Source: Burkholderiales bacterium PBB3 (GTDB taxonomy: Bacteria > Pseudomonadota > Gammaproteobacteria > Burkholderiales > Burkholderiaceae_C). Taken from it: a stretch of 64,000 nt of DNA. The notes beneath the pieces are model-generated. The model had not been told where the DNA came from. It worked only from the letters and a program-made list of their open reading frames with translations, and did no database searches. Within the stretch, counting starts at the first letter, position 1; every line of letters starts with the position of its first letter. This document shows, one piece after another, positions 10,634 through 49,075 of the stretch. Both the position numbers and the translations under genes were made by a program. The stretch covers positions 194,280 through 258,279 of the forward strand of contig NKIK01000003.1 in assembly GCA_002256115.1 (NCBI GenBank), in the 5' to 3' direction.

Positions 10634-10748
10634 GCGTGAATTTCATCTGCGGTGGAACATGTAAGTGCGGCTTACAAGTTCAATTCGAATCGAATTTCAG
10701 CGAGTCAGTTGTCAAGGAATCCTTGTCAACCGCCTTCAGGGGCAAACG

Positions 10749-13243: not shown

Positions 13244-13303
13244 GGGAAATCAATTTCCCTTACATTAAGTCCAGCATAAGGTAAAGATTAGGCCTGCCTA
13301 ACC

Positions 13304-18717: not shown

Positions 18718-18932
18718 ATAGGGCGAAAGAGAAAGTGGCGCGGTTTAATAAACTGCGCCACTTTTGCTGGAAACTGCGCCATTTGAAGCGCTATCGGCGG
18801 CACACATGGGTGTTTGTGTGCGCTTTGGCGTCACACACCCACATCGGGATAATCCACTGAGCACAGCAGGCACTTAGTTTTAAAAGCACTATCTTGCAAC
18901 CCCTTCTAATCAACCAACCCTCCCTCCAAGGC

Positions 18933-20588: not shown

Positions 20589-20614
20589 AACTCAACTACC
20601 AAGAGAAAAAGTCA

Positions 20615-21349
20615 ATGGCACTGGATCTGAGTGACTACGAGAACAAAACCCGAGAGGCCATCAAAACCTTTTGGCAATCCCGCGCCGATGCCACCCAAAA
20701 GCAGAAAGACTCGGGCAAAACCGACCAAGGTGAGCGTGCCGGAGTAACCGGCGGCAAGAACATGGACGGCTTTGTCAATTTGATGATTGATATCGTCAAG
20801 GCCAATGGCCTGCCCCATGCCCAAGTTCACCAGAACCGAGCGATGCTTAGCTTGCCGGGTTACTTGCGCCCCACAAAGCTATGGGATTTGCTGGTGATGA
20901 ACGACGGGTATCTGGTTGCCGCGCTGGAGTTCAAAAGCAATGTCGGCCCCTCGTTTAGCAACAACTTCAACAACCGCACCGAAGAAGCTATCGGCACCTC
21001 GCATGATTTGTGGACTGCCTACCGCGAAGGCGCGTTCGGCAAGCAAACCCGACCGTTCGTGGGCTGGCTGATGGTGGTGGAAGACGCACCCGCTTCACGT
21101 GCTCCGGTCAATGGCAACTCCCCTCATTTCCCGGTGTTTAAAGAATTCATTGGTGCCTCTTATCAAAAGCGCTACGACATCCTGTGCCAGCGCCTGGCGC
21201 TGGAGCAGCTCTACAGCGCCGCAGCGGTCATAGCCACGCCGCGCTCAGCGGTTGCCAACGGTGCTTTCACAGAACTCTCATCCATGACAAGTCTCCGATC
21301 TTTTGTGGCCTCATTGGCCGGGCATATTGCCGCCGAGGCAGCGCGCTGA
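20615..21349 (+). CDS. Putative cognate type II restriction endonuclease (PD-(D/E)xK; XhoI/PaeR7I-like by size and gene order)
   Basis: 244 aa, 26 nt downstream of the methylase. Candidate catalytic 'ND-x8-EFK' in '[20 protein letters not shown]'. Family assignment is from memory only. Confidence 0.5.
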
Positions 21350-35020: not shown

Positions 35021-36373
35021 TCACGACGGCCGCACAGGCTTCTTGCCGCGCTTGGGCGCCAGCAATACCGACTCACCCACTCTTGCAGTGGCGAATTTCT
35101 GGGGTGGTGATGGCTCCATCACCCCCGCCTCTTGAGTGAGCTTTGTCATTTCTGGCACCTGGATTTGAATGCGCTCGTTCAGTCGATTGAGCCCTGCGTT
35201 CCAGTGCCACAGCATCCTCGCGCCCACCGCGTCAAACCCTGGCGTGTGCTTCATGCGTTGAATCAATTCCGGCACGGTCGCCGCCACGGCGGTGCACACC
35301 AGCTCAGCGAGTTCGCGTTGGCGCGGGGGGTCGATACCCAGAAACACTTGCATGAATTGCCACAAGGGCTTCAGATGGGTCCAGCTCTTGCGGCCATCGA
35401 TGGACATGCCTGGCGGGTTATCCGCGTAGCTGTCATAGGCCACGATGGTCAGCATGTCGTAGATGGGCGCGACATGCACATCCTCCAAGCCGGTGTACAA
35501 AAAAGCAAGATTCTTGGTGTGGCAGTCTGAGTTGCCAAGTGCGTGCGTCAACAGCAGTGTCACGGCCAGTTGCTCGTAGGACGCGCGGCGGCCCTGGGGT
35601 GGCACATAGTTGCGCACAAGGCGCGCGGCGCGCTCCCAGGTGCCGTCGTACTTTTGCTCGGCACCCATGCCCAGCATGCTGCAAAAGTCTTCAAAACCCA
35701 GCCGCTCGCCAGTGAGCGGATCAATGTCAAAGCGCTCGACCACGAGGATCTGACCGTCGTCGGAAACCACTGTTTCTGCAACCGCGAAGCCGGTGGCTTT
35801 GGCCGCTTGCATACACAGGTGCTCGTTGAGCCCCACAAGCGGTTGCTTGTCTGAGCTAGCTTTGACGATGTGGCGCTCTGTGGATACGGTGCCTTTGCGG
35901 AACAGTGCTTTGGTCTCTGGCGTCAGAAATTTGGGGACCACCCCCGACACGCCTGAGGCCGCGTACTGGCTCATCAATTGCAGAAACACTTCGCGCGAAG
36001 ACTCACCATGCAACAGTCCATCGAGTTCATTGGCGGCGAGTTGCGGATTGGGACTACTGCCTGCGCTTACCTGAACGCGACCGATCATGTTGTGCCCCAC
36101 CACCGACAGCAGATCCATGGGACTTGCTCCCAGATGCGGCCCCAACTGCTCTTTGAGGACGGACAGTAAAAACCCCTCCGGCAGACTCACCTGAAAGAAA
36201 GGGTGCAGATTGGGCCACTCCCAGCTGGGGGACTGCACGGGCATGAGCAGCGACACAAAATCCTCGGGAGGGGTTCCGTGCAGGTAGGTCAGGTAATGCT
36301 CAAACCCTGCGGGGCTCTGCAACACCGCCACATGTCTGCCGTTCACGAAGACATTGAGTTCTGCCTTGCTCAT
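35021..36373 (-). CDS. hipA: HipA-family Ser/Thr kinase toxin
   Basis: 450 aa. N-terminal HipA coupling region; catalytic loop 'GNSDCHTKNLAFL' (DxHxKN); overlaps the upstream HTH gene. Confidence 0.85.
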   Translation of the reverse strand: MSKAELNVFVNGRHVAVLQSPAGFEHYLTYLHGTPPEDFVSLLMPVQSPSWEWPNLHPFFQVSLPEGFLLSVLKEQLGPHLGASPMDLLSVVGHNMIGRVQVSAGSSPNPQLAANELDGLLHGESSREVFLQLMSQYAASGVSGVVPKFLTPETKALFRKGTVSTERHIVKASSDKQPLVGLNEHLCMQAAKATGFAVAETVVSDDGQILVVERFDIDPLTGERLGFEDFCSMLGMGAEQKYDGTWERAARLVRNYVPPQGRRASYEQLAVTLLLTHALGNSDCHTKNLAFLYTGLEDVHVAPIYDMLTIVAYDSYADNPPGMSIDGRKSWTHLKPLWQFMQVFLGIDPPRQRELAELVCTAVAATVPELIQRMKHTPGFDAVGARMLWHWNAGLNRLNERIQIQVPEMTKLTQEAGVMEPSPPQKFATARVGESVLLAPKRGKKPVRPS

Positions 36374-36669
36374 GGCTTGCCGGACGCTCCGTGCGAAGCA
36401 TTGCGCAGTTCTTGCTGCAAGTCGTTCAAATTGGGGCGGCGGGTAGCGGGCACAAACTCCATCTCCACATCCAACACCTGCAACAAACGCAAGAGCTTGC
36501 CTGCGGATAGATCGCTGGAGGCCCCCGTCTCAAAGCGCGACAGCGTCTCTTGTCGCAATCCGGCAGCTGCTGCTACCTCAGTCTGCGTCTTGCCCGCTGC
36601 CTTGCGCAGCTGCTTGTACCGCGCACCAACGTCGGGCAGTGTTAATAAGGGATTTGCGTTTGGCATCAT
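36370..36669 (-). CDS. hipB: XRE-family HTH antitoxin (HipB-like)
   Basis: 'YKQLRKAAGKTQTEVAAAAGLRQETLSRFETG' HTH. ATGA-type overlap with hipA. Start taken at ATG 36669; the ORF extends to TTG 36690. Confidence 0.75.
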   Translation of the reverse strand: MMPNANPLLTLPDVGARYKQLRKAAGKTQTEVAAAAGLRQETLSRFETGASSDLSAGKLLRLLQVLDVEMEFVPATRRPNLNDLQQELRNASHGASGKP

Positions 36670-36706
36670 AAATTGGAGAAAATTTTCCAAATCATGCTGT
36701 TCATTG

Positions 36707-36787
36707 CATATTTCGTCAATCCAAAATATGTTTTTCAGATCAAACTATTTGTAATTTTTGTAGAAATATGATTTGAATAGCATATTT
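36707..36787 (-). promoter_or_regulatory. Candidate hipBA operator/promoter region with two dyads
   Basis: CATATTT-N10-AAATATG (36707-36730) and AAATATG-N10-CATATTT (36764-36787) lie in AT-rich DNA just upstream of hipB. Confidence 0.4.
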
Positions 36788-36842
36788 TGGGCAAGGGAAG
36801 AAACGGCCAATGCTGGGTAAGCGCGCTGGCAACCGTGCCGAT

Positions 36843-36913
36843 CCCCCTAGATTAGTGGCCAAAAGTGCCTTTCAACCGGCGATAGTGCGGGGGCAGCTCC
36901 TGAATTAGTAGCA
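36843..36913 (-). repeat. Dispersed repeat, copy 7 (degenerate)
   Basis: 'CCCCCTAGATTAGTGGCCAAAAGTGCCTTTCAACCGGCGATAGTGCGGGGGCAGCTCCTGAATTAGTAGC'. Confidence 0.75.
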
Positions 36914-37092
36914 ATTCGCGCAGATAAAGACTCGGCATCATGTACTGCATGGACATATCGGCAGCCAACGGCTATTGGAGGCTCATTTCGGTCTTTGCAG
37001 CCTCTCCGAAGCGGTCGGTCAAAATGCAGTTTTAACGTTGGAGGCCAGGCGCGGCTGAAGGCCGTCGCCTCTGGGCCGACCAGTTAGATTTC

Positions 37093-37578
37093 TTATAGGC
37101 CAAGAACATCACAGTGAAGTGGCCTGAGGTGAAACTTGCGGCGTTCGCGGCCCTGCCACTCACGCGGTACTTTGTCGAGTTCGCAGTTGAGTGTGACGCT
37201 GTTGACAATGCCAAACCCCAAAGCTACCCACTCAAACTCTCGCGAGTCTGATCCTGCATTTACCTTAAACCAGAATGCCTGTGTCGGGTCGCTTGAACTG
37301 GGAGGCATGCCAGGGTATCGCACCGGGGTCGCTTTCCCGGTAGCCACAACGACAAGGGCAGTACCCCGCGCGTCGGTAGTCGCGTAAATTGGGCGTTCGC
37401 AATCATCCGAGCCCAAGCTTCTGTAATCCAGGCACGTTGAGATGCCTGCAGCTCGCACTGGCTTTCCCGACTTTGTCAGCGTCACAGTAATCGGCGTAAG
37501 GACGACGTTCTCCGCATAAGCGGCAGGTACAGCCAAAGCGAGTGCTAAGGCGATATGAATGTGCCGAACGTAATACAT
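37093..37578 (-). CDS. Small secreted hypothetical protein in a low-GC patch
   Basis: Start moved to ATG 37578 ('MYYVRHIHIALALALAVPAAYA|EN' signal peptide). The longer ORF to 37917 would overlap the HKD gene. Confidence 0.4.
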   Translation of the reverse strand: MYYVRHIHIALALALAVPAAYAENVVLTPITVTLTKSGKPVRAAGISTCLDYRSLGSDDCERPIYATTDARGTALVVVATGKATPVRYPGMPPSSSDPTQAFWFKVNAGSDSREFEWVALGFGIVNSVTLNCELDKVPREWQGRERRKFHLRPLHCDVLGL

Positions 37579-37849
37579 GCTCGCGTGAAATCTACTTAAT
37601 GTCCAGAGCACCAATAAGTGCTCGATAAACTGGCTGATGCACGATATTCTGGTCATCAAATCCTCCCGAAAGTGGCTTGCAGCCTCACTTTCACTGTTTT
37701 TCGACTTTGTTAAATGGATATCGATATTCTGGCAGACCTGCCGAGACTGGCGGATACAAAACCATGTCCACAGACTCCATGAGACTGAAATTGGGTGACC
37801 GTCCTGAACGACAGCTATCACCCACAGATCGCAACGAGCAGGCTGAATC

Positions 37850-38566
37850 TCAATCGCCCAACTTTCCCCACAACTGATCAAACGCCCCCTGAAACTGCCG
37901 CACCAACGCAGCGTCATTCGTCACAACCACGTTCTCTTCGTTATGAGCCGCAGCACTGCGCGTCCAGTTGTAGCTGCCGTTCAGCAGCCACTGCCCATCA
38001 AAGATCGCAAACTTGTGGTGCATGTGCGCATCGGTGCGGTCCACGGCGGTGGGCACACCGGCGGCGCGCAGTCGGGTCACATCGCTGCCGGAGTCGGTTT
38101 CTTTGTCGTTGTCGGTGATGAAGCGCAGGGCCACGCCGCGTGCATGCGCGGCCAGCACCTCTTGGGCGATGCGGTCGTCGGACACGGTGAACACACAAAA
38201 ATCTACGCTGCGGTGGGCGCTGCGGAAGTGCTCGACGATGGTGTTCAGGCAAGCTTCACCAGGGCTAAAGAATGCGCTGGAGCGAATGGCTTGCGCTGGC
38301 GTACGGGCCACGTCCAGCGCGCGCACCACGGCCTCCGTCCAGCGCAGCACGGCCATGGGGTCTTGCTGTTCGGCCAACCGGTTGCGCGCCAGTGTGAAAG
38401 CATGGTTGCGCAGTTGGCGAAAGCCGTCTTCCGGCGGCTGGGCCTGGCGCAGGGTTTGGGCCAGGCTGTGTTTCTCTTCGTCGTCCAAGCGCAGGTCGGC
38501 CAGAGAGGCTTCCAACTGGCCTAGCAAGTTTTCCATGTCTGCGGGTGTGGCAGTCATCGTTTCCAC
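37850..38566 (-). CDS. Single-HKD phospholipase D-family protein (Nuc-like nuclease/phosphodiesterase)
   Basis: 'HMHHKFAIFDGQWLLNGSYNWTRSAA' HKD motif near the C-terminus, after a ~90-aa helical N-terminal extension. Starts 2 nt after the giant gene's stop. Confidence 0.85.
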   Translation of the reverse strand: METMTATPADMENLLGQLEASLADLRLDDEEKHSLAQTLRQAQPPEDGFRQLRNHAFTLARNRLAEQQDPMAVLRWTEAVVRALDVARTPAQAIRSSAFFSPGEACLNTIVEHFRSAHRSVDFCVFTVSDDRIAQEVLAAHARGVALRFITDNDKETDSGSDVTRLRAAGVPTAVDRTDAHMHHKFAIFDGQWLLNGSYNWTRSAAAHNEENVVVTNDAALVRQFQGAFDQLWGKLGD

Positions 38567-38568
38567 AC

Positions 38569-41500
38569 TCAGCCCTCGGTCTTCTTGCCACCGCCCTGGG
38601 CACGCGGTGCCCGTGGCTCGTTGGCTTTGGCCAGCAGCAGCTCCAGCCGTTTACTGATGCTGTGGTCCAGGTCCATGCGCTTCTCCGTCGCGGCGATCAG
38701 CGGCATGATGACTTTGCGGTATGTCACCGCCAACTGCAGCACGGCCTCAGCCATTTGCGCTCCCTCACTGGGTTCTTTGGGTCCCGCTGCCGGGCGCAAC
38801 TCATCAACCGACCGGCTCACATCCAGCAGTGCATTGGCAATGCGCGTAGAGCCGTCCGCATCCGCCCCACCCGCTTTGCGCTGGCGCACAAATTCGGCGC
38901 AGATGGCCTGCCAACGCGCATCCTCCTCGGGGCTTGCGGTGCCCATCAGTTGGGCCAGCTTGAGTAGGTTTTCTTGCGTGCCGGTGGTCAGGGTCTGGGC
39001 CTCACCCCGGTAGTGGTCGCGCAGCAGGGCGTCCAGTTCATCCTCATGCATCAGCCCGGTGATCTGGGCAGCCAGCTTGGTCATATTGCGGTAGCTGCCC
39101 TGTAGCTTGAAAGCGGGCTCGGTGCGGTAGTCGTCACGCTGGGCGGCTGAATCGATATAGGCCTGGTTCACCTTCAGCAGCAGATCGCGCGCGCGGAACA
39201 GCCTTTGCATGAGTGCTTTAAGCTCTTCCAGTTCGGCACTACTGTAAGCATGGGCAAAGTCGCCGCTGGCCACCTCATCCCCCTGGGCCAGGCGCACCAG
39301 CAATTGCACATCGCGCGGGTCGCGCGATGACAGGGGTGCCAGCACCGGATTGCTGGTCAGGCTGTTCTCAATATACGACTGGGCGAACAGGGCTTCGCGC
39401 CCAGCCAACACATCGCCCAGGTTGTAGATATCGGCCCGGTTGGCCAGCATGTCCGGGATCTTGAAGACCTCGCCCGACTCGGTATACGGGTTGCCCGCCA
39501 TGGCGATGGCAAAGCGCTTACCGCGCAAGTCGTAGCTGCGCGCCTGGCCTTGCCACATGCCTTCAATGCGGCGCGTGCCATCGGCCAGGCCGATGAACTT
39601 CTGCAAAAACTCCGCACTGGTGTGCTGAATGTCGTCCAGGTAGAGCATCACATTGCTGCCCATGGCCAGGCCCAGGTTCAGCTTCTCCAGCTCTTGGCGG
39701 GCAGCGCTGTTGCTGGCCGACGCAGGGTCAAGCGCCGTCACGTCATGGCCCAGTGCGGGGCAGTTGATGCGCACAAACACCAGCCCCAGCCGGTCGGCCA
39801 CATATTCCATCAGCGTGGTCTTGCCATAGCCAGGCGGCGAAATCAGCAACAACAGCCCCATGCGGTCCGTACGGCTGGTGGCACCGGTGGTGCCAATCTG
39901 CTTGGCCAGGTTGTCGCCAATCATCGGCAGGTACACCTCGTCGATCAGACGGTTGCGCACAAAAGATGACAAAGGCTTGGCCTGGAACTGGGATAAACCG
40001 AGGCGCGATTTTTCTGCGCTCAGCAGTTCGTGGTGCAAGCTTTTGAGCGCTGCAAACGCGGGCACCACCGTTTCGGCATGCGCGCGGTAGCGGCTCCAGA
40101 AGTCATTCAAATTGATCTGCAAGCTGCCTTGATTGATGCGGGCGTGTTCGCTGCGCAAACCGGTCACCGTGGCATCCAGCACCACATTCACCCTGCGGCG
40201 CTGGCCTGGCACAGCCAATACGCAGGCGGCATCGTCTACCCATGCGATGGCGGTCGGCTGGTGCGCCAGTGCAAAGGCATGCATCCAGGCACGCGCCAGC
40301 AACCAACGCTCGGCGGGTGTGGATGCATCCAGGCTGTGTTGCCAATCCAGCGCTTGGCCCAGGCGCTCCAGCTCGCGCTGCAGTGCGCTGGCCATGTCTT
40401 CGCCCGCGCCGCTGATAACCCAGGCCTGCTCTGTACCTGCAGCCCCAATCTCCCGCAGCCAATAGCTCGCGGCTTGATGGCACGCGGTCTGGTGATGCCC
40501 GTTATCAACGGACACTGGCGACAACGCGAAGCCGCTCTCTTCGGCAAACTGCAGCACGCTGTGCGCGGCCTCCACTTCCAGTTTTTGCAGGCTATCGCCA
40601 GCGCCAAAGAGGTGTTGCACTTGCAGCGCTGCACGCGCACGCCGCCGCCAAGACGCCTGCGCCTCACCCGAGCCCAAGTGCTGCCAAACCAATGTCGCCA
40701 GCGCGCGCTCTGTGGGGCCCCAAGTCAGCAAGCCTGCCTGCTCTTGCATGGGCACCAAAGCAGCAACCAAGCGCACCGCATCTTCGTCGTGCACGCCCTT
40801 TTCGTACCCTTCTTGATAACGGGCTGCGGCAAATTGGCGCACGCCCTCCAGCAGCGCCGCATGGCCGTCTTCACCTTGCGCCACCAGCGCCAGAGTTTGT
40901 GCCCAGGTCAGTGTGGCCTGCCCTTTTAGAACCTCTTCAATCCAACTTGCCGCCAAGTACTCTGCGCGGCTGATCAGCGCGGTCTCAGACGGCAGGGCTT
41001 GTTGCCAATACGGGCGATACGCGTCCAGCCGCGCGTCTTGCAGCGGTGCCCGGTAATCCGTGCCCGTCAGGTAAAAGGCCATGCTGTCGCCCAGCGGAGC
41101 CAGTGTGAGCTCCAGCGGCTGGCGGCTGATGGTGAAAGCGTGGCGGCCCAGGCGCAAATGGTTGCCGCCCTCAGACACCAGCTCGCGCTGATCACGCACC
41201 GCGCGCAAGGCGTGGTCGCGGCAAGTCTTGAGGCGCGTGTCCAGATCATCCGCAGCCACCTGGTCACCCAGGCCCCGCATGTCTGCAATCAGAGTGCGCA
41301 GCTTGGCAATCAGCAAGTCCGCCGCAAAGTAGCTGTGCACTTCTTCCAAGCCACTGAGCTGGGCCACACGGCGCTGCGCCCCGTCCAAAATGCGACCGGC
41401 CGCTGCAGCCAGAGCCTGCACGCGCTGCTGGCGCGCTTGCACCAGCGTTTGCTTGCGCGCGGTCAGCGCTTCGTAGACGGCCTCGCGTTTCTCTGTCACA

Positions 41501-43743
41501 TCGGCCAAGAACTCAGCGTGCTCGGCAAAGCGGCCCTCCAGCTCTTCCAGTTGGGCCAGCAGGCGGGTCAATGCGTCATCGCATTTTTCGGGGGTGTCGG
41601 CAAAGTCCAGCGCGTTCTCCACCGCTTGGCCAAACAATTTGAACTGGGCCTGAAACTCGGCTGCCGCCTCGCGCGAGCCCAGTGCCTTGCGTCGGTTACG
41701 CGCATCGGCTCGCAAGCGGTTGATGTCGGTGTACAGCGCAGAAATGCGCTCCAGAATGCCAGTGCGCTGCACGGCATCGCCGCCGGGCAAACCACCCAGC
41801 TGTTCGGTCAGCAGGTCCAGGCCTGCGGCCGTATCGTCCAGCCCCTGCAGAATGCTTTGTAGGCCCTGGCTGGTGGATACCTTGGGCAGCTCAGTGGCCA
41901 CTTGTGCCAGTTGCTGCTGGTGGGCGTGGAAGGCCTTTGCATCGGCCATGAAGGCCATGGCGCGCTCACCCACGCGCTGCTGCTCGGCCACCAGCTCGGT
42001 GTGCATGGCCTCTATGCGGGGCAGATCGGTGTAGCGCAGTTCTTTCAGGGTTTCCAGGTGGCCGCGGCGTTCGCGCAGGCGGCCCAGCGCCGCCACAAAG
42101 TCTTCGGGCTTGCGCCATAGCGTGCTGGCAATATCCACCACCAGTGCCTTGTGCTGGGCCTGTGCTTCGTCCAGGGCCTTGGCGGTCTCCTTGCGGATTT
42201 GCTCTACCTTCTCAAACTCGGCCAGCGTGGTGCGCGCCGCATCGCCAATGCCTTGCAGGTCTTGCAGCAAAGCACCCGCCTCGGGGTCGGCCAGCCAAAA
42301 ATAAGCGTCTGTGACGCGTCCGCATTGGCGAATCAAATCCTCATAGGCGGTGCGGGTGGGCGCTTGCTCTTGCAAGGCGCGCGCAATGCCCATCAACTCG
42401 GCAATACCGCGCACCAGCTCCGCATTGCCGATACGGCTGAAAAAGCCGGTGCCCGCATTCGCGCCGCCCGCGTACTCCTCGCTAAAAAACGGGGTTTGCC
42501 ACAGCTGCATCGGGTGCAGCCGCGTGGGCTCACCCATGCCCGCCTGAAACACCAGCACCTTGCCATCGGCAAACAGCGCGTAGCCATTGGCCACGATCGG
42601 CGCGGCCAAGGATTTATCGATCAGGTTGTAGGTAAACAGCGCATAGTGGCCGCTGACCGGCTGGTAAAACAGATACAGCACATCCTCGCCATTGGGCGAG
42701 CGCAGCATGCGCTTGAAGCGCAAATTGCGTGCAACATCTTCAGGCAAATCAAAGTGCTTGAACTCGCCCGACTGCAGGTAATAGCCACCCGGAAACACAA
42801 TGCCGTGGTCCTCCGGCAACTGCACACACGACAAGCCAATGGCATCAATGCGCGCTACCTGCAGCGTGCGCTGGTTGAAGACCAGATAGCGGGTAGTTTG
42901 TTCGCGATAGGGCCGCACGCGCAGCAAAATGAGTGCGCCCAGCTTGGCGTAGGCCACCTCGGCATCGGTGAGCGACTGGCTCTTGTCGTCCACCGGCTCG
43001 CTGTAAATGCCCAGTCCGGTTTCGGTGTTGTTCTCTACCTTAACGGTCAGGTCGCCACCCACCGTCTCCACGAATACCGTGTCCAGAATATTGATATGCG
43101 GATGCTTGCCGTCCACATGGTTTTCACGGGTGGTTGGCGTCCATTCAAAGTCGTGGCTAGGCGGTAGCGCAATGTCGCGCTCGCCACGGTTGTCCAGATA
43201 CTGCAGCGTGCCATCTGGCGACAACTGCCAGCGGAACACGCGCACGTCGTGCACTTGCTGACCTATCTGAAAAGCCGCCAGCAGCTTACCCTGCGTGACC
43301 CGCAGTTGCAGCAGTTGGGCTTGCTTGTAATAGGCGTAAAGCTCTTTGAAGTCGGATGCGAAACGCGCGTCTTCCAGAAAGCTGCCAGCCAGAGGCACAT
43401 CTTCCAGATCCTGCTCGGTACCCATGCGGTACAGCGCAAAAACATCCCCCACGCTGGTCTCTTTGCGCAGGCCAATGAAAACGTTATAGCCAAACAGCAG
43501 CAGATCGCCAATGCGCACGATGTCGCGGGCGACACAGTTGTTTTGGGTGCGGGCACGGGTGCGCAGTACCAGCGTTTGCTCGGACTTGCCAAACTCTAGC
43601 GTGCGGGCGGCATTGAGCGTTTGTGCTTTTTTAAGCAGCACTTCGCCCTGCACGGTCAGGCGATTCTTCAGCAGCTCGTAGCTATTGCTGCCAGCGACCA
43701 GACTCTCAGTGGAGTCTGCCGCCGCGGATGTGTCAGAAGGCAT
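38569..43743 (-). CDS. 1,724-aa protein with one C-terminal AAA+ (MoxR/AAA_5-like) module; N-terminal 1,300 aa unassigned
   Basis: Walker A 'SPPGYGKTT' (nt 39814-39837), Walker B 'VMLYLDD' (nt 39631-39648), 'AMAGNPYTESGEVFKIPDMLANRADIY'. Residues ~480-900 are Ala/Leu/Gln/Arg-rich and coiled-coil-like. Uninterrupted ORF with coding-like composition. Confidence 0.85.
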   Translation of the reverse strand: MPSDTSAAADSTESLVAGSNSYELLKNRLTVQGEVLLKKAQTLNAARTLEFGKSEQTLVLRTRARTQNNCVARDIVRIGDLLLFGYNVFIGLRKETSVGDVFALYRMGTEQDLEDVPLAGSFLEDARFASDFKELYAYYKQAQLLQLRVTQGKLLAAFQIGQQVHDVRVFRWQLSPDGTLQYLDNRGERDIALPPSHDFEWTPTTRENHVDGKHPHINILDTVFVETVGGDLTVKVENNTETGLGIYSEPVDDKSQSLTDAEVAYAKLGALILLRVRPYREQTTRYLVFNQRTLQVARIDAIGLSCVQLPEDHGIVFPGGYYLQSGEFKHFDLPEDVARNLRFKRMLRSPNGEDVLYLFYQPVSGHYALFTYNLIDKSLAAPIVANGYALFADGKVLVFQAGMGEPTRLHPMQLWQTPFFSEEYAGGANAGTGFFSRIGNAELVRGIAELMGIARALQEQAPTRTAYEDLIRQCGRVTDAYFWLADPEAGALLQDLQGIGDAARTTLAEFEKVEQIRKETAKALDEAQAQHKALVVDIASTLWRKPEDFVAALGRLRERRGHLETLKELRYTDLPRIEAMHTELVAEQQRVGERAMAFMADAKAFHAHQQQLAQVATELPKVSTSQGLQSILQGLDDTAAGLDLLTEQLGGLPGGDAVQRTGILERISALYTDINRLRADARNRRKALGSREAAAEFQAQFKLFGQAVENALDFADTPEKCDDALTRLLAQLEELEGRFAEHAEFLADVTEKREAVYEALTARKQTLVQARQQRVQALAAAAGRILDGAQRRVAQLSGLEEVHSYFAADLLIAKLRTLIADMRGLGDQVAADDLDTRLKTCRDHALRAVRDQRELVSEGGNHLRLGRHAFTISRQPLELTLAPLGDSMAFYLTGTDYRAPLQDARLDAYRPYWQQALPSETALISRAEYLAASWIEEVLKGQATLTWAQTLALVAQGEDGHAALLEGVRQFAAARYQEGYEKGVHDEDAVRLVAALVPMQEQAGLLTWGPTERALATLVWQHLGSGEAQASWRRRARAALQVQHLFGAGDSLQKLEVEAAHSVLQFAEESGFALSPVSVDNGHHQTACHQAASYWLREIGAAGTEQAWVISGAGEDMASALQRELERLGQALDWQHSLDASTPAERWLLARAWMHAFALAHQPTAIAWVDDAACVLAVPGQRRRVNVVLDATVTGLRSEHARINQGSLQINLNDFWSRYRAHAETVVPAFAALKSLHHELLSAEKSRLGLSQFQAKPLSSFVRNRLIDEVYLPMIGDNLAKQIGTTGATSRTDRMGLLLLISPPGYGKTTLMEYVADRLGLVFVRINCPALGHDVTALDPASASNSAARQELEKLNLGLAMGSNVMLYLDDIQHTSAEFLQKFIGLADGTRRIEGMWQGQARSYDLRGKRFAIAMAGNPYTESGEVFKIPDMLANRADIYNLGDVLAGREALFAQSYIENSLTSNPVLAPLSSRDPRDVQLLVRLAQGDEVASGDFAHAYSSAELEELKALMQRLFRARDLLLKVNQAYIDSAAQRDDYRTEPAFKLQGSYRNMTKLAAQITGLMHEDELDALLRDHYRGEAQTLTTGTQENLLKLAQLMGTASPEEDARWQAICAEFVRQRKAGGADADGSTRIANALLDVSRSVDELRPAAGPKEPSEGAQMAEAVLQLAVTYRKVIMPLIAATEKRMDLDHSISKRLELLLAKANEPRAPRAQGGGKKTEG

Positions 43744-43751
43744 GCAGACCC

Positions 43752-44288
43752 TTACCAGTCAGCACGCAACAAGGCGACTAGCTCGTCACGGCCTGGCTGC
43801 GCCTGAAGCCACTGGCGAATGCGTGCCAGCTCATCCATGGTCTCAGCGCCGTGGCGTTGGCGCAGCACGGCTTCGCGTCCTTGGCGCAACTCGTTAGTCT
43901 GCAATTGGCGCTGCCAAGCATCGGTCAGAATCTCGTCGAGCCGGCTGCCCAGACCTGCTGCCACAAATGCCTGCCACTCGCCGCGGGCAAACCAGACGTT
44001 CTGGCACGCAGCGCAACGGTCCACGCGGAAGTCGGGCTGCGCGCCTACGCGGAAACGCTGCATCAGGCGCGCGCACGCAGGGCAATGCCGGGCGATCGGG
44101 TCTTCATCGGCAGCGATGGCTTGCGCCACCGGCGGCACCGGTGTTTTGTCGCGCCAGGCGCGGTAGTCGTCGAGTTGTAAAAGCTGGCCTTCACAACTGA
44201 CGCATTCCAGGCCCTGCAGTCCGGGTGCCAATTCGCAGACTGTGAGTTCGGTGTGGGCCTCGCAGCCGCAGCGCAGTGTTGATTTCAT
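43752..44288 (-). CDS. Double zinc-ribbon protein (zf-TFIIB-like)
   Basis: 'CPACARLMQRF...VDRCAACQNVWFARGEW' matches the CPxC...DxCxxCxGxWxDxGE pattern. A degenerate first copy is 'CGCEAH...CVSCEG'. 8 nt upstream of the giant gene. Confidence 0.65.
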   Translation of the reverse strand: MKSTLRCGCEAHTELTVCELAPGLQGLECVSCEGQLLQLDDYRAWRDKTPVPPVAQAIAADEDPIARHCPACARLMQRFRVGAQPDFRVDRCAACQNVWFARGEWQAFVAAGLGSRLDEILTDAWQRQLQTNELRQGREAVLRQRHGAETMDELARIRQWLQAQPGRDELVALLRADW

Positions 44289-44303
44289 GGGTGTGCTCCT
44301 GCG

Positions 44304-46466
44304 TTACTCGGGTTTCTGGCCACTTTTGTTGGTCTTGGACAGCAAGGAGGCAATCGCCAGGTCTTTCAGCTCGCCCGACGAGTTGCCGAGCGACCCGACC
44401 AGTTGCCCCAGGTCGTCCACCATATTGCGTTTGCCCGACAGGTGATCTTTCAGCCCGATCTTCAGCGTATCGCTCTTGGCGATAGCGCCGTCGATGCCCT
44501 TGCCCACCGCCAGCGCACTGACGAAACGCTCGAAGTAGCTGCCGTCGCCGCCCACCATCTCGATCTTGGCATTGGCCAGTGCTTTGCCCAGGACTTCGGC
44601 CTGCTCTTTGGCGATGGCGGTTTGTGCATCGATGCCCTTGAGGGTCTCGGTATGCGCCATCTCCAGCCGCATGCGGTATTCCTCGTGGTCGCGCGTTTCG
44701 CTGCTCATGGCCTTCATGGCTTCAAACTTCTCGCGCAGGCCCTTGGCCTCTGCAGAGAAGCGTGCTTGCACGTTCTGGGCATCAGCTTCGCCTGCCTTGA
44801 TCGTGGCTTCGGCTCCGGCGGTGCGCACAGCCACTTCGGCCAGGCCCAGTTTCTCTTTGCCTTGCGCTTCAGCTTCCAGTTTGGCCTGCAGGCCCGTGGC
44901 TTCGGCTTGCGCGCGCGCTTCGATCACCTGCGCGTCTGCCAGGCCGGCTTTGATGGTGGCTTCCACGCCCGCTGTACGCACCGCCACATCGGCCAGGCCC
45001 AGCTTCTCTTTGCCTTGCGCTTCAGCCTGGTTACGCGCCTCAATCACATGCACATCCGACAGACCCTTTTTCTCGGTGGCGTCGGCAGTCACCATCATCA
45101 CGCGGGCGGCCGCCAGGCCAGGGGCGGCACTCACTGCCTCCATGCCTTCCGCCTCCCGCTTTTTGGACTCGGCGTTCTTCTCTGACACCTTGAGTCGCGC
45201 ATCCGCCATGGCGACTTCTTCGCTAGCTTTGTGGCGTGCACTGCGTTCTTGCGACTCTGCCGCCTTCACTTCCGCAATCATTTTTTCTTCGGCCTGACCT
45301 TCAGCCAGGATGATGGTGGAGCGCTTGGTGCGCTCTGCCTCCGCTACCACGCGCAGTTCCTTGATGGCTTCTTCTTGCTCGGCCACGGTGCGGTCCACCA
45401 CGATGCGTTCGCGGATCACGTCGGCAATGGCTTTCTTTTGCACCTCCAGCGCGCGTTCTTTGTCGATCTTCTGCAGGGCCACTTCTTTCTCGCGGTCCAC
45501 CACTTCCAGGTCGCGCGCACGAATCACTTTTTCTTCTTCAATGGCCACCGCGCGCTTGCGGTTGTTCTCGGCCACTTCTTTTTCGCGCAATGCGTTTTCG
45601 TTTTGCACTGCTACCTGCTGCTCGCCTTGCAGGCGCGCCATCTCGGATTTGGTGCGTTCCTCAGATTGGATCTTGGAAGTCTCGGCCTCTTCGCGAGCGC
45701 GCATGGTGGCCACTTCCCGCTGCTGGCGGGCTTGGGCGTCGGCGGCCTGGCGATCCAGCTCCAGCATGGTCTCCTGGGTTTCCACGTTTTTCTTCTTGAT
45801 CTGCATCTCTTCGTTGCGGCGCAGCTCGTTGGTGCGCACGCTCTCCACCGCCGTCAGCTCGGTGATTTTCTTGATGCCCTGGGCGTCCAGAATATTGCTC
45901 GCGTCCAGCTTGGACACCGGTGTTTGCTCCAGGTAGTCAATGGCAGCATCTTCGAGCACATAGCCCGACAGGTCGTCGCCAATCTGGCGAATGATTTCGT
46001 CGCGGAAATGGTCGCGCGCCTGGTACAGGTCCACAAATTCCATGGACTTGCCCACGGTTTTGAGCGCCTCTGAAAACTTGGAGGAGAACAGGTCTTCCAA
46101 CGCATCCTGGTTGGAGGCTCGCTCGCAGCCCACGCCTTGGGCGACCTTCAAAACGTCTTCCGCGGTTTTGTTGACGCGTACGAAAAACTTGACCTTGATG
46201 TCGGCGCGGATGTTGTCCTTGCAGATCAGCCCTTCGCGGCCCGAACGGTCAATCTCAATGGTCTTGACCGAGATGTCCATCAACTCGGCCTTGTGGATGA
46301 TGGGGTAGACCATGCAGCCTGTGAAAGTGACCGTAGGCTCAGCGCGCATGGTGTTCACGATCAGGGCGTGGCCCTGCTCAATCTTCCGGTAAAAGCGCGC
46401 AAACAATACAAACATGCCGAACACGATGACCGTGATGACGGCTGCTGCGACGATGATGGGTTCCAT
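44304..46466 (-). CDS. yqiK: Flotillin-like SPFH (band 7) protein
   Basis: N-terminal TM 'IIVAAAVITVIVFGMFVLFARFYRK', SPFH domain, long Glu/Ala/Arg coiled coil. Internal 153-nt duplication ('QGKEKLGLA(D/E)VAVRTAG.EATIKAG' twice, period 44838 vs 44991). Confidence 0.9.
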   Translation of the reverse strand: MEPIIVAAAVITVIVFGMFVLFARFYRKIEQGHALIVNTMRAEPTVTFTGCMVYPIIHKAELMDISVKTIEIDRSGREGLICKDNIRADIKVKFFVRVNKTAEDVLKVAQGVGCERASNQDALEDLFSSKFSEALKTVGKSMEFVDLYQARDHFRDEIIRQIGDDLSGYVLEDAAIDYLEQTPVSKLDASNILDAQGIKKITELTAVESVRTNELRRNEEMQIKKKNVETQETMLELDRQAADAQARQQREVATMRAREEAETSKIQSEERTKSEMARLQGEQQVAVQNENALREKEVAENNRKRAVAIEEEKVIRARDLEVVDREKEVALQKIDKERALEVQKKAIADVIRERIVVDRTVAEQEEAIKELRVVAEAERTKRSTIILAEGQAEEKMIAEVKAAESQERSARHKASEEVAMADARLKVSEKNAESKKREAEGMEAVSAAPGLAAARVMMVTADATEKKGLSDVHVIEARNQAEAQGKEKLGLADVAVRTAGVEATIKAGLADAQVIEARAQAEATGLQAKLEAEAQGKEKLGLAEVAVRTAGAEATIKAGEADAQNVQARFSAEAKGLREKFEAMKAMSSETRDHEEYRMRLEMAHTETLKGIDAQTAIAKEQAEVLGKALANAKIEMVGGDGSYFERFVSALAVGKGIDGAIAKSDTLKIGLKDHLSGKRNMVDDLGQLVGSLGNSSGELKDLAIASLLSKTNKSGQKPE

Positions 46467-46523
46467 GAAAACTCCCTAGTGAAACAAATTACTTAAACGA
46501 TCGAAGAGGCAGTGCGCAGGGCG

Positions 46524-47153
46524 CTAAGGCTCCGCCACCACCTTGTAGCGTGCTGTCTTTTCGTCATAGCCCACGATGCGTGCACTGCTACCGCGTGCCA
46601 GTGCATTGGGCACAGGCGTCCAGATGCGAATATTGATGCTGGCACCGTGCTGGGCCACCTCGGCGCGGCCCATCTGCTCATCCACCGTTTGGGTCAGCAC
46701 TTTGCAGGTCTGCCCCACCAGCGATGCATTGTTGATGGCAGCGTGGGTGACGAACAAACCACGCAGCGGCCGAATCATGCGGGCACTGACCGTGACCGCC
46801 AAAGACAGGCTGGCCAGGGCCAACACAGCACCCGCGCCGTAGTTGGCTGCGGCACCACCCAACCAGGGCAGCACCCACATGGCCCCCAGGCAGCTCAGTG
46901 TCCAAGCGACCAATATGACCAGGCTGACCGCGATAGAAAATGGAACCCCGTGCAGGCCGAAAGCGACCACATAGCTGGCCACCGTGCTGATCTCGTAGCC
47001 GTCCACATCGGCGGCAGAGCCAGGCTCCAGGTCCAGAGACTCTAAATCGACCACGCCCAGCAGGGCCAGCAGCCAGTAAAAGATCACGACCCCTAAAAAA
47101 GTCGTGAAGAGTGCGGTGGGAAATGCGACCACCGCGTCCAAAAAGCTCAGCAT
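46524..47153 (-). CDS. yqiJ: YqiJ-like inner-membrane protein with C-terminal NfeD-type OB fold
   Basis: 209 aa, which I recall is about the size of E. coli YqiJ. Multiple TM segments, then a beta-rich 'LVGQTCKVLTQTVDEQMGRAEV...' domain. Directly upstream of the flotillin gene, as in yqiJK. Confidence 0.7.
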   Translation of the reverse strand: MLSFLDAVVAFPTALFTTFLGVVIFYWLLALLGVVDLESLDLEPGSAADVDGYEISTVASYVVAFGLHGVPFSIAVSLVILVAWTLSCLGAMWVLPWLGGAAANYGAGAVLALASLSLAVTVSARMIRPLRGLFVTHAAINNASLVGQTCKVLTQTVDEQMGRAEVAQHGASINIRIWTPVPNALARGSSARIVGYDEKTARYKVVAEP

Positions 47154-47311
47154 TGTTCTCCCTCTTATATGGCTAAGCGCCGTTTTGCCGCGATGTTAGC
47201 CAATCTGGCCCGCGGCGGGCCCGTTTTCTACGGGCTTGCGGATATTGTGTGCAATAAATTGGCCCCACAGCGCAAAAGCCATCTTGGGCTTAGGGGCCTT
47301 GGCAGCCGCGC

Positions 47312-47382
47312 AATTTAAATGAATTCAAGCTGTAGAGCCCATGGATAGTGCGGGAGCAGCTTCTGAATTGATAGCAATCAAT
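47312..47382 (-). repeat. Dispersed repeat, copy 8
   Basis: '...GAGCCCATGGATAGTGCGGGAGCAGCTTCTGAATTGATAGCAATC'. Confidence 0.8.
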
Positions 47383-47406: not shown

Positions 47407-48756
47407 CTAGCGTGCGGGTGCCACCGCCAACCGCCACAGCGAGGTGACCTCTAGCGCACGCGCCGCGTGCAGCGGGTCGGCCGCATCAAAGGCCTTGCCA
47501 TGCACCGGCTTGGTATCCAGCCGCCCCAGCACCTGCAGGCCCGCGCCAGCAATCGCGTCCAACAATTCAGCGCGGCTGCGCAGGCCCAGGTGTTCGGCCA
47601 AATCCGAGAGGATCAGCCAGCCCTCGCCCTGCGGCTCCAAGTGCGCGGCCAGGCCCGCCAAAAAGCCCAGCAGCATAGCGCTGCCTTCGTCATACACCGC
47701 GTGCTCTATGGGTGAGCTGGGCCGGGCGGGTAGCCACGGCGGGTTGCACACGATCAGATGCGCCAGCCCTGGCGGGAATAGGGATGTCTGCAACAACTGC
47801 ACCGGCGAATCAGCGCGGCCCGCCACGCCCAGCCTCTGCAAATTTTCAGCCGCGCAGGCCAGGGCGCGCGGGTCCAGATCGGTGGCCACGATATGGCCCA
47901 CACCCCGGCGCGCCAGCACCGCAGATAACACGCCCGTGCCCACACCAATGTCAAACGCCGTCAGCTTGGCGGCGGCCTGCGCACCGTGGGCTCCTTGGAC
48001 TCCTTGGACTACTTGGACACTTGGCAGCGGTGCCTGCTGCACCAAGCTCACATACTCACCCCGCTGCGGAGAAAACACGCCGTAGTGCGGGTGGATGCGG
48101 TTGTGGGGCGCAGCGCCCAGGGCGGGCACTTCCACACCGTTTTTGCGCCACTCGTGCGCGCTGATCAGGCCCAGCAGCTCACGCAATGACGCTACCGAAG
48201 CCACAGCGTCCGCACCCGGCGGGCCCCAAGCCTCAGCACAGGCCTGGCGCGCATCGGGGGCGCGCTTGAGTGCGATACCGTAATCCGCCTCAAAGCCAAT
48301 CAGAAGCATGCCCAGCACGCGCGCACGCTGCGCCTGGGCTTGGCGGTGCAAATGAAAGGCAGTGGCCGGATTCGATGCCTTTTCGGCCACTGAGGCCGTG
48401 GATAGTGCGGGAGCAGCTCCTGAATTAATAGCATTGCGCTCTGGCGCGCCCGCTAGTTGCTTTGCCCTCTTGATGGCCTTGGCACCCTTGGCGGCTTTGC
48501 CGCTGGGGCCCGACGCATCGGCCCGCCGCGCGAGCGCCTGCAGCATCTGCCGCGCGTTTTGAAAATCACCCCGCCACAGCAGCGCCGTGCCTTCGCAGGC
48601 CAGGCGGTAAGCGACATCGGCGCTCAGGGTGTCATCGGCCAGCACCACGCGCTTGGGTGGGCTGACACCACGCTCTGAGCGCCACTGCGCGCTGCAGGGC
48701 TGGCCGGCTTCTTGCCAGTGGATGCGGGCTTCGCCCGATGTTGGTGAAGTCGTCAT
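47407..48756 (-). CDS. Class I SAM-dependent methyltransferase (NPPW motif; HemK/RsmC-like) with a long N-terminal extension
   Basis: 'FDIGVGTGVLSAVLARRG' motif I, 'LIVCNPPWLPA' motif IV. Start ambiguous (48756, 48771 or 48810). Contains repeat copy 9 in frame. Confidence 0.75.
   Translation of the reverse strand: MTTSPTSGEARIHWQEAGQPCSAQWRSERGVSPPKRVVLADDTLSADVAYRLACEGTALLWRGDFQNARQMLQALARRADASGPSGKAAKGAKAIKRAKQLAGAPERNAINSGAAPALSTASVAEKASNPATAFHLHRQAQAQRARVLGMLLIGFEADYGIALKRAPDARQACAEAWGPPGADAVASVASLRELLGLISAHEWRKNGVEVPALGAAPHNRIHPHYGVFSPQRGEYVSLVQQAPLPSVQVVQGVQGAHGAQAAAKLTAFDIGVGTGVLSAVLARRGVGHIVATDLDPRALACAAENLQRLGVAGRADSPVQLLQTSLFPPGLAHLIVCNPPWLPARPSSPIEHAVYDEGSAMLLGFLAGLAAHLEPQGEGWLILSDLAEHLGLRSRAELLDAIAGAGLQVLGRLDTKPVHGKAFDAADPLHAARALEVTSLWRLAVAPAR
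48366..48433 (-). repeat. Dispersed repeat, copy 9 (in frame inside the methyltransferase)
   Basis: '...GAGGCCGTGGATAGTGCGGGAGCAGCTCCTGAATTAATAGC', translated on the minus strand as '[19 protein letters not shown]'. Confidence 0.8.
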
Positions 48757-48760
48757 AAGT

Positions 48761-49075
48761 TCAGTAGCCATGGAGGGCGTATTCCAGGGCGTCCCAAATG
48801 GCTTCGGCATCGCCTTGCAGGTTGGCTACTGGGCGGCGCAGATCGCCGGGCTCATGGGAGGTAATCGCCAAAGTCTCCAACACAAGCATTTCACCCGCAA
48901 CACTCAGCCAGGGATTCAGTGTGGTGGGAGGCGCTGTTTGCGTATCCGGGCGCGCCAACGCCACGGTGATCACCGCTACGGGGCGTTTCAGAAAATTGCT
49001 TTGAATGCCGACGACGAAGGGATGACTGTCGCGCAACTCTTCGACCGGGTTGGGGTACACATCGAACTGAGCCAT
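48761..49075 (-). CDS. ccdB: CcdB-family toxin
   Basis: 104 aa. 'MAQFDVYPNP......PFVVGIQSNFL' matches the CcdB N-terminal pattern. 1-nt overlap (TGATG) with the upstream antitoxin gene. Confidence 0.7.
   Translation of the reverse strand: MAQFDVYPNPVEELRDSHPFVVGIQSNFLKRPVAVITVALARPDTQTAPPTTLNPWLSVAGEMLVLETLAITSHEPGDLRRPVANLQGDAEAIWDALEYALHGY

Follow-up and report, generated by a model that had tools for sequence, protein, structure and literature searches.

A large AAA+ ATPase encoded with flotillin-like and NfeD-like membrane proteins in a Burkholderiales genome

The operon and its 1,724-aa ATPase

We analyzed a stretch of 64,000 nucleotides from Burkholderiales bacterium PBB3 (assembly GCA_002256115.1, contig NKIK01000003.1, positions 194,280 to 258,279 of the forward strand), referred to in the following as the window, with a focus on an operon whose fourth gene encodes an AAA+ ATPase of 1,724 amino acids (aa). 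The operon lies on the minus strand and comprises, in this order, genes for an NfeD-like membrane protein, a flotillin-like protein, a zinc-ribbon protein, the ATPase and a phospholipase-D-superfamily protein with an HKD motif (HKD protein). The genes are separated by gaps of 57, 15, 8 and about 0–11 bp, and a gap of 253 bp precedes the first gene. Scans for consensus promoters and terminators were uninformative, with counts near those in shuffled sequence.

The open reading frame (ORF) of the ATPase is present at 38569..43743 with an ATG start codon, and its position and length are as described in an earlier reading of the DNA made from the letters and their translations (the original prediction). 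All peptides quoted there were located at their places, namely SPPGYGKTT at residues 1302–1310, VMLYLDD at 1365–1371 and AGNPYTESGEVFKIPDMLANRADIY at 1416–1440, as well as LVFNQRTLQVARIDAIG at 287–303 and GGYYLQSGEFKHF at 319–331 in the N-terminal part. Two observations that would speak against this reading, homology to a characterized family with an unrelated role and a fusion artefact of several genes, were looked for and neither was found. In particular, a fusion artefact could be ruled out by collinear full-length homologues in more than 100 genomes, by the shared Pfam architecture and by an independent assembly of sequencing run SRR5749613, which contains an identical ATPase within the same gene block. 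The ORF encodes a real, full-length representative of a conserved family whose members are cytoplasmic proteins of ~1,600–1,800 aa.

Both the family and the operon type are already known in silico, and the 1,724-aa protein is another member. In a purely computational comparative genomics study of CesT/Tir-PspA dyad operons, Ravi, Anantharaman et al. (mSystems 2024, PMC11237479) described the architecture ‘Betapropeller+Coiled-coil+AAA-ATPase’ beside a Band-7/flotillin protein and a YqiJ/YuaF protein with three transmembrane (TM) segments. According to this study, a phospholipase D (HKD) hydrolase joins the operon in some Proteobacteria, and abbreviated operons without PspA are more widely distributed. 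The proposed role is a chaperone-like, ESCRT-analogous one in sub-membrane dynamics; the neighborhood of IS97_2772 in Dokdonia donghaensis serves as an example, and the Pfam family DUF3686, which marks the N-terminal part of our protein, is not named there. The operon in the window is the abbreviated form of this system, extended by the zinc-ribbon and HKD genes.

At the level of Pfam families, the ATPase combines DUF3686, DUF7902 and AAA. DUF3686 (PF12458) is matched at residues 36–482 over profile positions 2–448 of 448 (E 4.5e-197; 655 bits at a cut-off of 25), DUF7902 at residues 603–686 (E 6e-23), and AAA, AAA_5 and AAA_22 at residues 1295–1425. Sub-segments of residues 861–1290 and 1440–1724, together ~700 residues, gave no Pfam family match, even at E ≤ 10. 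Pfam scans revealed no helicase, nuclease, SMC or ABC domain, in agreement with the original prediction, and no TM-like segment was seen in a hydropathy scan, as fits a cytoplasmic protein. Searches against the PDB by sequence and profile returned matches at the level of the P-loop only (RuvB, p97, Rpt3; E 0.005–0.05) and one coiled-coil match, TEX12, none of which tells anything about function.

Two AlphaFold2 models were built from a 52-sequence alignment of homologues from Burkholderiales and Hymenobacteraceae, covering residues 1–520 (model 1; pLDDT 85.4, pTM 0.82) and residues 861–1724 (model 2; pLDDT 83, pTM 0.72). Model 1 begins with a long helix (6–51), followed by ~26 strands within residues 57–416, arranged as 6–7 four-stranded units, and by helices at 434–519. 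The helix and the beta-rich, 6–7-bladed propeller-like domain (residues 6–416; 42496..43728, minus strand, as for all features of the operon) make up the bulk of DUF3686. A Foldseek search of the PDB with this model gave 194 matches at E ≤ 1e-3, and the top 50 were nearly all beta-propeller proteins, for example Elp1 (5.6e-8), DCAF1, KLHDC3, CyRPA, prolyl oligopeptidase and YncE, at low TM-scores of 0.2–0.4. Residues 57–416 are thus predicted to form a divergent beta-propeller-like domain.

The adjoining helical region (residues 434–860; 41164..42444) starts with a part (434–519) that forms a bundle with helix 6–51 in the model. Residues 520–860, which contain DUF7902, are presumed to be a coiled-coil: they are rich in Ala, Leu, Gln, Arg and Glu, poor in Gly and Pro, and show an amphipathic 3.5-residue periodicity in parts, which fits the ‘coiled-coil’ label of Ravi et al. 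The next region (39895..41163) is predicted to consist of a small beta unit (861–901), an all-alpha domain (926–1177), a second small beta unit (1180–1211) and long helices (1212–1283), with pLDDT values mostly above 90 over residues 861–1283. Neither sequence profiles nor Foldseek found anything for this region in the PDB, and in the Foldseek search with the whole C-terminal model ~600 non-AAA residues were without any match. Behind the AAA+ module, the C-terminal helical domain(s) (residues 1491–1724; 38572..39273) show helices to about residue 1707. The stretch 1501–1600 is conserved, and variability and low model confidence characterize the last ~75 residues. Altogether, ~700 residues of the ATPase (861–1290 and 1440–1724) have a confident predicted structure without detectable relatives.

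The single AAA+ module (residues 1297–1490; 39274..39855) was delineated by Pfam matches (AAA, AAA_22, AAA_5, RuvB_N) and by the secondary structure of the AlphaFold2 model. It carries a Walker A motif of the AAA-type (S)PPGxGKT form (SPPGYGKT, with K1308), a Walker B motif of the form hhhhDD and not DE (LYLDD, with D1370/D1371), and sensor-1 N1418. The core strands are predicted at 1297–1300 (beta1), 1322–1327 (beta2), 1365–1370 (beta3/Walker B) and 1411–1416 (beta4), with a pre-sensor-1 beta-hairpin at 1392–1405 between alpha3 and beta4 and a helical lid at 1434–1486. The module further contains the invariant loop TESGEVFKIPDMLANR, and R1436 is a candidate arginine finger. The invariant stretch 1421–1437 (TESGEVFKIPDMLANRA) is of low confidence in the model, as would be expected if it becomes ordered only at a subunit interface. 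G1305, G1307, K1308, T1309, D1370, D1371, H1374, N1418 and P1419 are invariant in 76/76 aligned sequences, and N1435 and R1436 are kept in 75/76. This invariance suggests that the nucleotide site is under selection as an active NTPase, and the module appears to be catalytically intact. DnaA also uses DD in its Walker B motif, so that the DD pair is no argument against hydrolysis. Only one Walker A/Walker B pair is present in the ATPase, and a motif search for a second, degenerate P-loop found none.

With regard to the affiliation of the core, PF00004 aligns to the P-loop alone (positions 1–38 of 131), and AAA_5 is the only Pfam AAA model running across the whole core (positions 2–127 of 139; 24.7–28.1 bits, cut-off 22). 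RuvB_N stays below its cut-off (19.3–22.8 bits versus 27, ~50 residues around the P-loop), and the NCBIfam RuvB models reach 18–20 bits against cut-offs of 282–299, again in the P-loop region only. For the core, Foldseek with the C-terminal model gave only generic AAA+ matches at E 3e-4 to 4e-3, including ClpX, RuvB, MCM, ClpA, spastin, NorQ and CbbQ; the best target-normalised TM-scores were those of NorQ (0.47–0.55) and CbbQ (0.39–0.47). The core thus falls into the pre-sensor-1-hairpin group and is MoxR/AAA_5-like. The MoxR clade is defined by a helix-2 insert together with the pre-sensor-1 beta-hairpin; no beta-insert is seen between beta2 and alpha2 (1346–1361) in the AlphaFold2 model, an observation from a single model.

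The original prediction is borne out in part by this layout. The single AAA+ module with one P-loop holds, its proposed MoxR/AAA_5 likeness is backed by the AAA_5 score above cut-off across the core and by the NorQ and CbbQ TM-scores, and both the beta-rich N-terminus (given as residues 1 to ~470) and the helical tail after the ATPase core are seen in the models. The helix-like stretches expected at residues ~480–900 are present in the model as far as helices 434–519 are concerned, and are indicated by composition and periodicity, that is by sequence only, for residues 520–860. However, the statement that ~1,300 aa in front of the module are unassignable was overstated, as curated families, although of unknown function, cover residues 36–482 and 603–686. 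Similarly, the N-terminal and central parts cannot count as unknown, since they correspond to curated Pfam DUFs and the whole architecture is already contained in PMC11237479.

The membrane partners of the ATPase are encoded by the first two genes. The NfeD-like (YqiJ/YuaF-type) protein of 209 aa (46524..47153) has 3–4 hydrophobic segments, and its C-terminal segment reads like an NfeD beta-barrel. Neither this protein nor three orthologues gave a Pfam match, even at E ≤ 1, and a Hymenobacter orthologue is annotated as DUF1449. The assignment as NfeD-like, a probable one, is based on position, size, TM topology, orthologue annotation and the literature (PMC11237479; PMC2636767), in which YqiJ and YuaF are described as NfeD homologues (PMC2636767).

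The flotillin-like SPFH protein of 720 aa (44304..46466) carries a TM segment at the N-terminus (1–28), a Band-7 region of divergent sequence, a long coiled-coil rich in Glu, Ala, Lys and Arg, and conserved sequence at the C-terminus. The coiled-coil contains an internal ~54-aa duplication (AEAQGKEKLGLA[DE]VAVRTAG[VA]EATIKAG...), which was not picked up as a DNA tandem repeat by Tandem Repeats Finder. The strongly negative AT skew (−0.33) at window positions 44001–46000 is due to the Glu/Lys/Ala/Gln-rich composition of this coiled-coil. The direct Pfam Flot match of the protein is weak (E 0.009); Band_7 is matched by 3/17 orthologues (best 7.6e-11), and orthologues at 41–58% identity are annotated as ‘SPFH domain-containing’ or ‘flotillin family’. 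In the PDB, neither the single sequence nor a 17-sequence profile gave a match.

Two accessory genes flank the ATPase gene. The zinc-ribbon protein of 178 aa (43752..44288; Pfam Zn_ribbon_TFIIB, E 2.1e-6) shows a CPxC...CxxC pattern and a helical C-terminus, and its gene ends 8 bp before the start of the ATPase gene. The last gene of the operon (37850..38566; Pfam PLDc_2, E 4e-30) encodes the HKD protein of 235/238 aa, with a probable ATG start at 38557. It is a single-HKD, PLD6/Zucchini-like member of the phospholipase D superfamily with one intact HxKxxxxD motif at residue 183 and, according to a hydropathy scan, without an N-terminal membrane anchor. Its best PDB matches, over residues 98–235, are entries named ‘mitochondrial cardiolipin hydrolase’ (9lkx, 4e-27; 4ggj, 6e-25), followed among solved structures by Nuc (1.4e-8) and NucT (6e-6), and weak matches to the phospholipase D (PLD) models of PADLOC were obtained for MkoB (1e-8), DpdK (2e-8) and DrmC (3e-7). 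As noted in the original prediction, both an SPFH-like gene and an HKD gene thus adjoin the ATPase gene in the window.

Conservation of the family and its gene neighborhood

The same Pfam architecture is found in more than 5,000 sequence clusters and, by precomputed annotation, in 240 matches. Among 1.84 billion cluster representatives, DUF3686 itself was matched by only 734, and in nearly all of these it stands at the N-terminus of a protein of 1,600–1,800 aa; it is essentially confined to the DUF3686-DUF7902-AAA architecture. We aligned 75 collinear homologues at 32–80% identity (13 from searches and 62 distant cluster representatives), of which the distant representatives were collinear over the full length at 32–54% identity. 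Full-length homologues at 40–49% identity occur in Deinococcota, Actinomycetota, Bacteroidota and Gammaproteobacteria, encoded on 13 large plasmids or mis-filed chromosomes from Proteus, Deinococcus, Streptomyces, Nonomuraea, Pseudomonas, Halomonas, Hymenobacter, Photobacterium and Vibrio. The closest genome match is a Rhodoferax metagenome-assembled genome (MAG) with 79% identity, which places the window in a betaproteobacterium of Comamonadaceae-like affiliation; homologues of Bacteroidota and Betaproteobacteria share 42% identity over ~1,650 aa.

Across the 75 homologues, conservation peaks in the AAA+ module, where 65–72% of the sequences are identical to the window residue, and reaches 44–59% in the propeller-like part (47–59% in the blades at 201–400) and ~52% in residues 1501–1600; the minimum lies in residues 1051–1200 and in the last 75 residues. 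In Hymenobacter and Variovorax, a homologue is present in many species at ≥69% identity, and none was found in phage records or in complete E. coli genomes. This genus-wide carriage at high identity, together with the lack of phage copies, suggests a housekeeping or stress function and not a fast-evolving mobile one.

The gene neighborhood was surveyed in 84 loci, i.e. in 80 GTDB species genomes (all Beta- or Gammaproteobacteria) and four plasmids from Pseudomonas, Deinococcus, Streptomyces and Hymenobacter, and each neighbor was counted among those loci whose flanking sequence sufficed. The gene directly upstream of the ATPase gene is a flotillin-like one in 75/77 loci, and an NfeD-like gene is found upstream in 73/76. 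A pspA gene of the yjfJ type was found further upstream in 55/74 loci and a YjfI/CesT-like chaperone gene upstream in at least 28/74. The zinc-ribbon gene is present in 31/67 loci, where it separates the flotillin and ATPase genes or follows the PLD gene. On the downstream side of the ATPase gene, the HKD enzyme is encoded in 33/71 loci and a rhomboid protease in 21/73. The suggested adjacency to SPFH or HKD genes is therefore essentially constant for SPFH but applies only about half the time for HKD. The triad of flotillin, NfeD and ATPase genes also occurs in Deinococcus, Streptomyces, Hymenobacter and Pontibacter.

Only two loci, from an Azoarcus MAG and a Methyloprofundus MAG, are without a flotillin-like gene. 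In the Azoarcus MAG (locus L029, 1–8000), the ATPase gene has neither flotillin nor NfeD neighbors; judging from ORF N-termini, we take the genes around it to be type I-F-like CRISPR-Cas (Csy/Cas6f) and transketolase-like genes. The ORF upstream in the Methyloprofundus MAG is presumably a transposase. Variation was further seen in a Pontibacter locus (L086), where a PH_40-domain protein (7147–7875) takes the zinc-ribbon position between flotillin gene and ATPase gene, and where an Apyc1-like gene of the metallo-beta-lactamase fold and two more Band_7 genes follow downstream (13156–16145). In gammaproteobacterial loci (L041–L084), the rhomboid gene is located ~300–900 bp past the ATPase gene and in many cases precedes the HKD gene. 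Taken together, SPFH, rhomboid and AAA+ proteins recall Erlin, Derlin/RHBDL4 and p97 of eukaryotic endoplasmic-reticulum-associated degradation (ERAD), as an analogy only.

Besides the operon, further genes were noted in the window. On the plus strand, a type I restriction-modification (R-M) operon with hsdM, hsdS and hsdR spans 8333–16381, with a Fic/DOC-family gene with a MarR-type helix-turn-helix (HTH) domain (12110–13243) inserted between hsdS and hsdR. At 18894–21349, also on the plus strand, a gene for an Eco57I/TaqI-like N6-adenine methyltransferase is followed by one for an XhoI-family endonuclease (Pfam XhoI, E 3.5e-96); the two are apparently a type II R-M pair. Close behind the downstream end of the operon, on the minus strand (35021–36690), lie genes for a hipB-like HTH protein of 106 aa and a hipA toxin kinase of 450 aa. 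The spacer between the HKD gene and hipB (37093–37917, minus strand) has a lower GC content (0.538 over 36–38 kb). It contains an unconserved ~187-aa ORF with a signal-peptide-like N-terminus; read in a longer form of 274 aa, this ORF runs into the HKD gene, and the longer form is probably spurious. A 467-aa protein encoded at 47407–48810 on the minus strand has a C-terminal HemK/PrmC-like methyltransferase domain and matches the PADLOC model mad2 (E 1.3e-15). No other components of MADS were detected near it and, with no counterpart in any of the 84 related loci, it is an orphan methyltransferase. This mad2-like gene, hipBA and orf274 were considered as parts of the system and ruled out, as they stand beside the ATPase gene in 0/84 loci.

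The Logan contig from SRR5749613 (L085, 12,402 bp) matches window positions ~35,021–47,358, starting ~200 bp upstream of the NfeD-like gene and stopping just past hipA. Its ends coincide with the block of operon plus hipBA, and the flanks may therefore vary between strains.

Possible roles of the ATPase

As an interpretation that we favor by a small margin over its negation, the ATPase could be a cytoplasmic AAA+ remodeler that works with a flotillin/NfeD (and PspA) scaffold in membrane maintenance under envelope stress. The protein would oligomerize via its AAA+ module, and the oligomeric ring would act as the motor. The propeller and the helical regions may recruit it to the cytoplasmic face of the flotillin assembly and serve as partner or substrate platform and as spacer, with docking on the flotillin/NfeD scaffold and, where pspA precedes the operon, also on PspA, a bacterial relative of ESCRT-III. 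Under envelope stress, ATP would then drive the assembly, remodeling or disassembly of flotillin/PspA polymers or of their clients. Interchangeable, optional effectors or adaptors might be provided by the HKD and zinc-ribbon proteins and, in other genomes, by the PH-domain and rhomboid proteins.

Hydropathy is compatible with this arrangement, as TM segments are seen in the flotillin-like and NfeD-like proteins but not in the ATPase. Precedents for SPFH assemblies partnered with AAA+ machines are HflK/C with FtsH and prohibitin with the m-AAA protease (cited in PMC2636767). Pairs of flotillin and NfeD are common without the ATPase (PMC11237479, PMC2636767), and the ATPase is almost never found without a flotillin-like gene, which argues that it depends on the scaffold. 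The function of bacterial flotillins is still open, and deletion phenotypes are often weak (PMC13086221); the ATPase is mentioned neither in that publication nor in PMC9239133. A large and strongly conserved family that nearly always stands beside a flotillin-like gene would therefore give tangible enzymatic access to the biology of flotillin and PspA. With respect to the original prediction, the view that the protein has no part as an enzyme in central metabolism is supported. The idea of a sensor is not; the data are better accounted for by a motor or remodeler that is tied to a membrane scaffold.

Several points weigh against a remodeling role at a flotillin scaffold. Gene linkage alone cannot separate a protein acting on the scaffold from one that is merely localized by it, and the SPFH assignment of the 720-aa protein in the window probably holds by orthology, its direct Flot match being weak. 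In the window, two queries each for PspA and CesT-like proteins were without a tblastn match, and a rhomboid gene is found neither there nor in any Burkholderiales locus. The operon sits among restriction-modification and toxin-antitoxin genes, and no synteny of its wider flanks with related loci was found. On the mechanistic side, no aromatic pore-loop motif between beta2 and alpha2 is evident in the sequence, and a classical threading unfoldase mechanism is thus not indicated. Zucchini and PLD6, the closest solved relatives of the HKD protein, are better established as single-strand nucleases than as lipases, and this points away from a purely membrane-lipid role. Finally, our literature search found no paper mentioning DUF3686 or PF12458.

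A more specific version, which we regard as unlikely but conceivable, assumes a machine for membrane remodeling or membrane-protein dislocation, in which a megadalton ring of propeller-tipped AAA+ subunits sits on a flotillin dome and acts on flotillin/PspA polymers or clients, with the HKD protein and, in other genomes, a rhomboid protease as effectors. If true, such a ring-on-dome machine would be a bacterial counterpart of Vps4/ESCRT-III, or of p97 with rhomboid/Derlin and Erlin, and it would represent the first defined enzymatic partner of bacterial flotillins.

Some of the same observations could also reflect membrane-protein extraction or quality control, in which an AAA+ ring pulls damaged or misassembled proteins from flotillin patches and the rhomboid protease acts as proteolytic partner in many gammaproteobacterial operons. 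In ERAD, p97 works with rhomboid-family and Erlin (SPFH) proteins. In line with such a role, an SPFH protein is the near-obligate neighbor, and a rhomboid gene follows the ATPase gene in 21/73 loci and belongs to its cluster on pQBR103. The pre-sensor-1 hairpin and the top Foldseek matches, among them RuvB and the unfoldases ClpX and ClpA, point in the same direction, as does the analogy to HflK/C-FtsH and prohibitin/m-AAA (literature cited in PMC2636767). However, the matches to ClpX, ClpA and RuvB are weak (E about 1e-3 to 1e-4), the analogy concerns function, with homology ending at the AAA+ core, and the ATPase has no protease domain and no evident classical aromatic pore loop. Given also that the window and all Burkholderiales loci are without a rhomboid gene, we consider extraction distinctly unlikely.

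The surroundings of the operon in the window raise a further explanation, namely an unrecognized anti-phage or abortive infection system, in which flotillin/NfeD (and PspA) would sense membrane perturbation during infection, the ATPase would pass the signal on and nucleic acid would be degraded by the Zucchini-like HKD nuclease. The operon is located amid the type I R-M system with its Fic gene, the type II R-M pair, hipBA and the orphan mad2-like methyltransferase gene, its flanks are non-syntenic with those of related loci, and homologues reside on large plasmids. The HKD protein, whose best solved relatives are Zucchini/PLD6, shows the weak matches to MkoB, DpdK and DrmC, PLD proteins of Mokosh, Dpd and DISARM. 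Yet, the flotillin-like, NfeD-like and zinc-ribbon proteins match no model of PADLOC-DB 2.0, and the matches of the ATPase are marginal, with LmuB (5.6e-4) in the coiled-coil and IetA (2.6e-3) and mad8 (3.6e-3) at the P-loop. The presumed HKD effector is missing in 38/71 loci, and the high conservation across many species of whole genera, without phage-borne copies, is unlike that of typical defense genes. Literature searches combining SPFH, anti-phage and AAA, or ‘DNA repair ATPase’ and flotillin, returned nothing relevant. Altogether, a defense role appears clearly improbable to us.

A role as DNA-repair or recombination ATPase related to RuvB, as implied by the name ‘DNA repair ATPase’ in the title of Pfam DUF3686 and in the NCBI product name, is very improbable indeed: the weak RuvB_N and RuvB matches are confined to ~50 residues at the P-loop and score far under the cut-offs, RuvB being otherwise one of several AAA+ proteins among the top Foldseek matches, while the other ~1,500 residues contain no DNA-binding, nuclease or helicase domain in Pfam, the conserved neighbors are genes for membrane proteins with no repair genes conserved nearby, and no supporting paper was found. 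With neither domains, neighbors nor the literature found in its support, the name is likely misleading, and it is carried by thousands of records.

Comparison with known systems

Among the proteins of the operon, the HKD protein resembles PLD6/MitoPLD/Zucchini, which likewise have a single HKD motif, and its HxKxxxxD motif is intact (E 4e-27 to 6e-25); it differs from them by lacking an N-terminal membrane anchor and by a helical N-terminal extension of ~100 aa. The ATPase shares with RuvB a local similarity at the P-loop and the pre-sensor-1 hairpin, but scores far under the family cut-offs and is without RuvA/RuvC context or a DNA-related domain.

With the MoxR proteins (AAA_5; NorQ, CbbQ, RavA), the ATPase has in common the AAA_5 match over the core, the TM-scores of NorQ and CbbQ and the pre-sensor-1 hairpin. 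The post-sensor-1 motif NP...IPDMLANR resembles what we take to be the MoxR pattern, NP...LPxAxLDR. In contrast, typical MoxR proteins comprise ~300–500 aa compared with 1,724 aa here, the Walker B motif of the ATPase is DD and not DE, no VWA/MIDAS partner is present in the operon or its neighbors in the window, and the helix-2 insert is not clear in the model.

Regarding the coupling to a membrane scaffold, HflK/C-FtsH and prohibitin/m-AAA likewise connect an SPFH scaffold to an AAA+ protein at the cytoplasmic face, the connection here being one of gene linkage. The ATPase is without the TM segment and protease domain of FtsH, is 4–5 times larger than the FtsH AAA module and is homologous to it in the generic AAA+ core only. 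A second parallel is offered by Vps4/ESCRT-III and PspF/PspA, as an AAA+ protein is genetically tied to a protein of the PspA/ESCRT-III superfamily in 55/74 loci; the ESCRT analogy was drawn by Ravi et al. (PMC11237479).

The closest counterpart is the operon type of Ravi et al. itself. Compared with its full form, the operon in the window is without the CesT/Tir-PspA dyad and has a zinc-ribbon gene added between the flotillin gene and the ATPase gene. Both share an ATPase built of beta-propeller, coiled-coil and AAA+ in this sequence, a flotillin-like and a second membrane partner, here the probable YqiJ/YuaF counterpart, encoded in an identical order, and an HKD protein as an optional member; this pattern is reproduced in the 84 loci.

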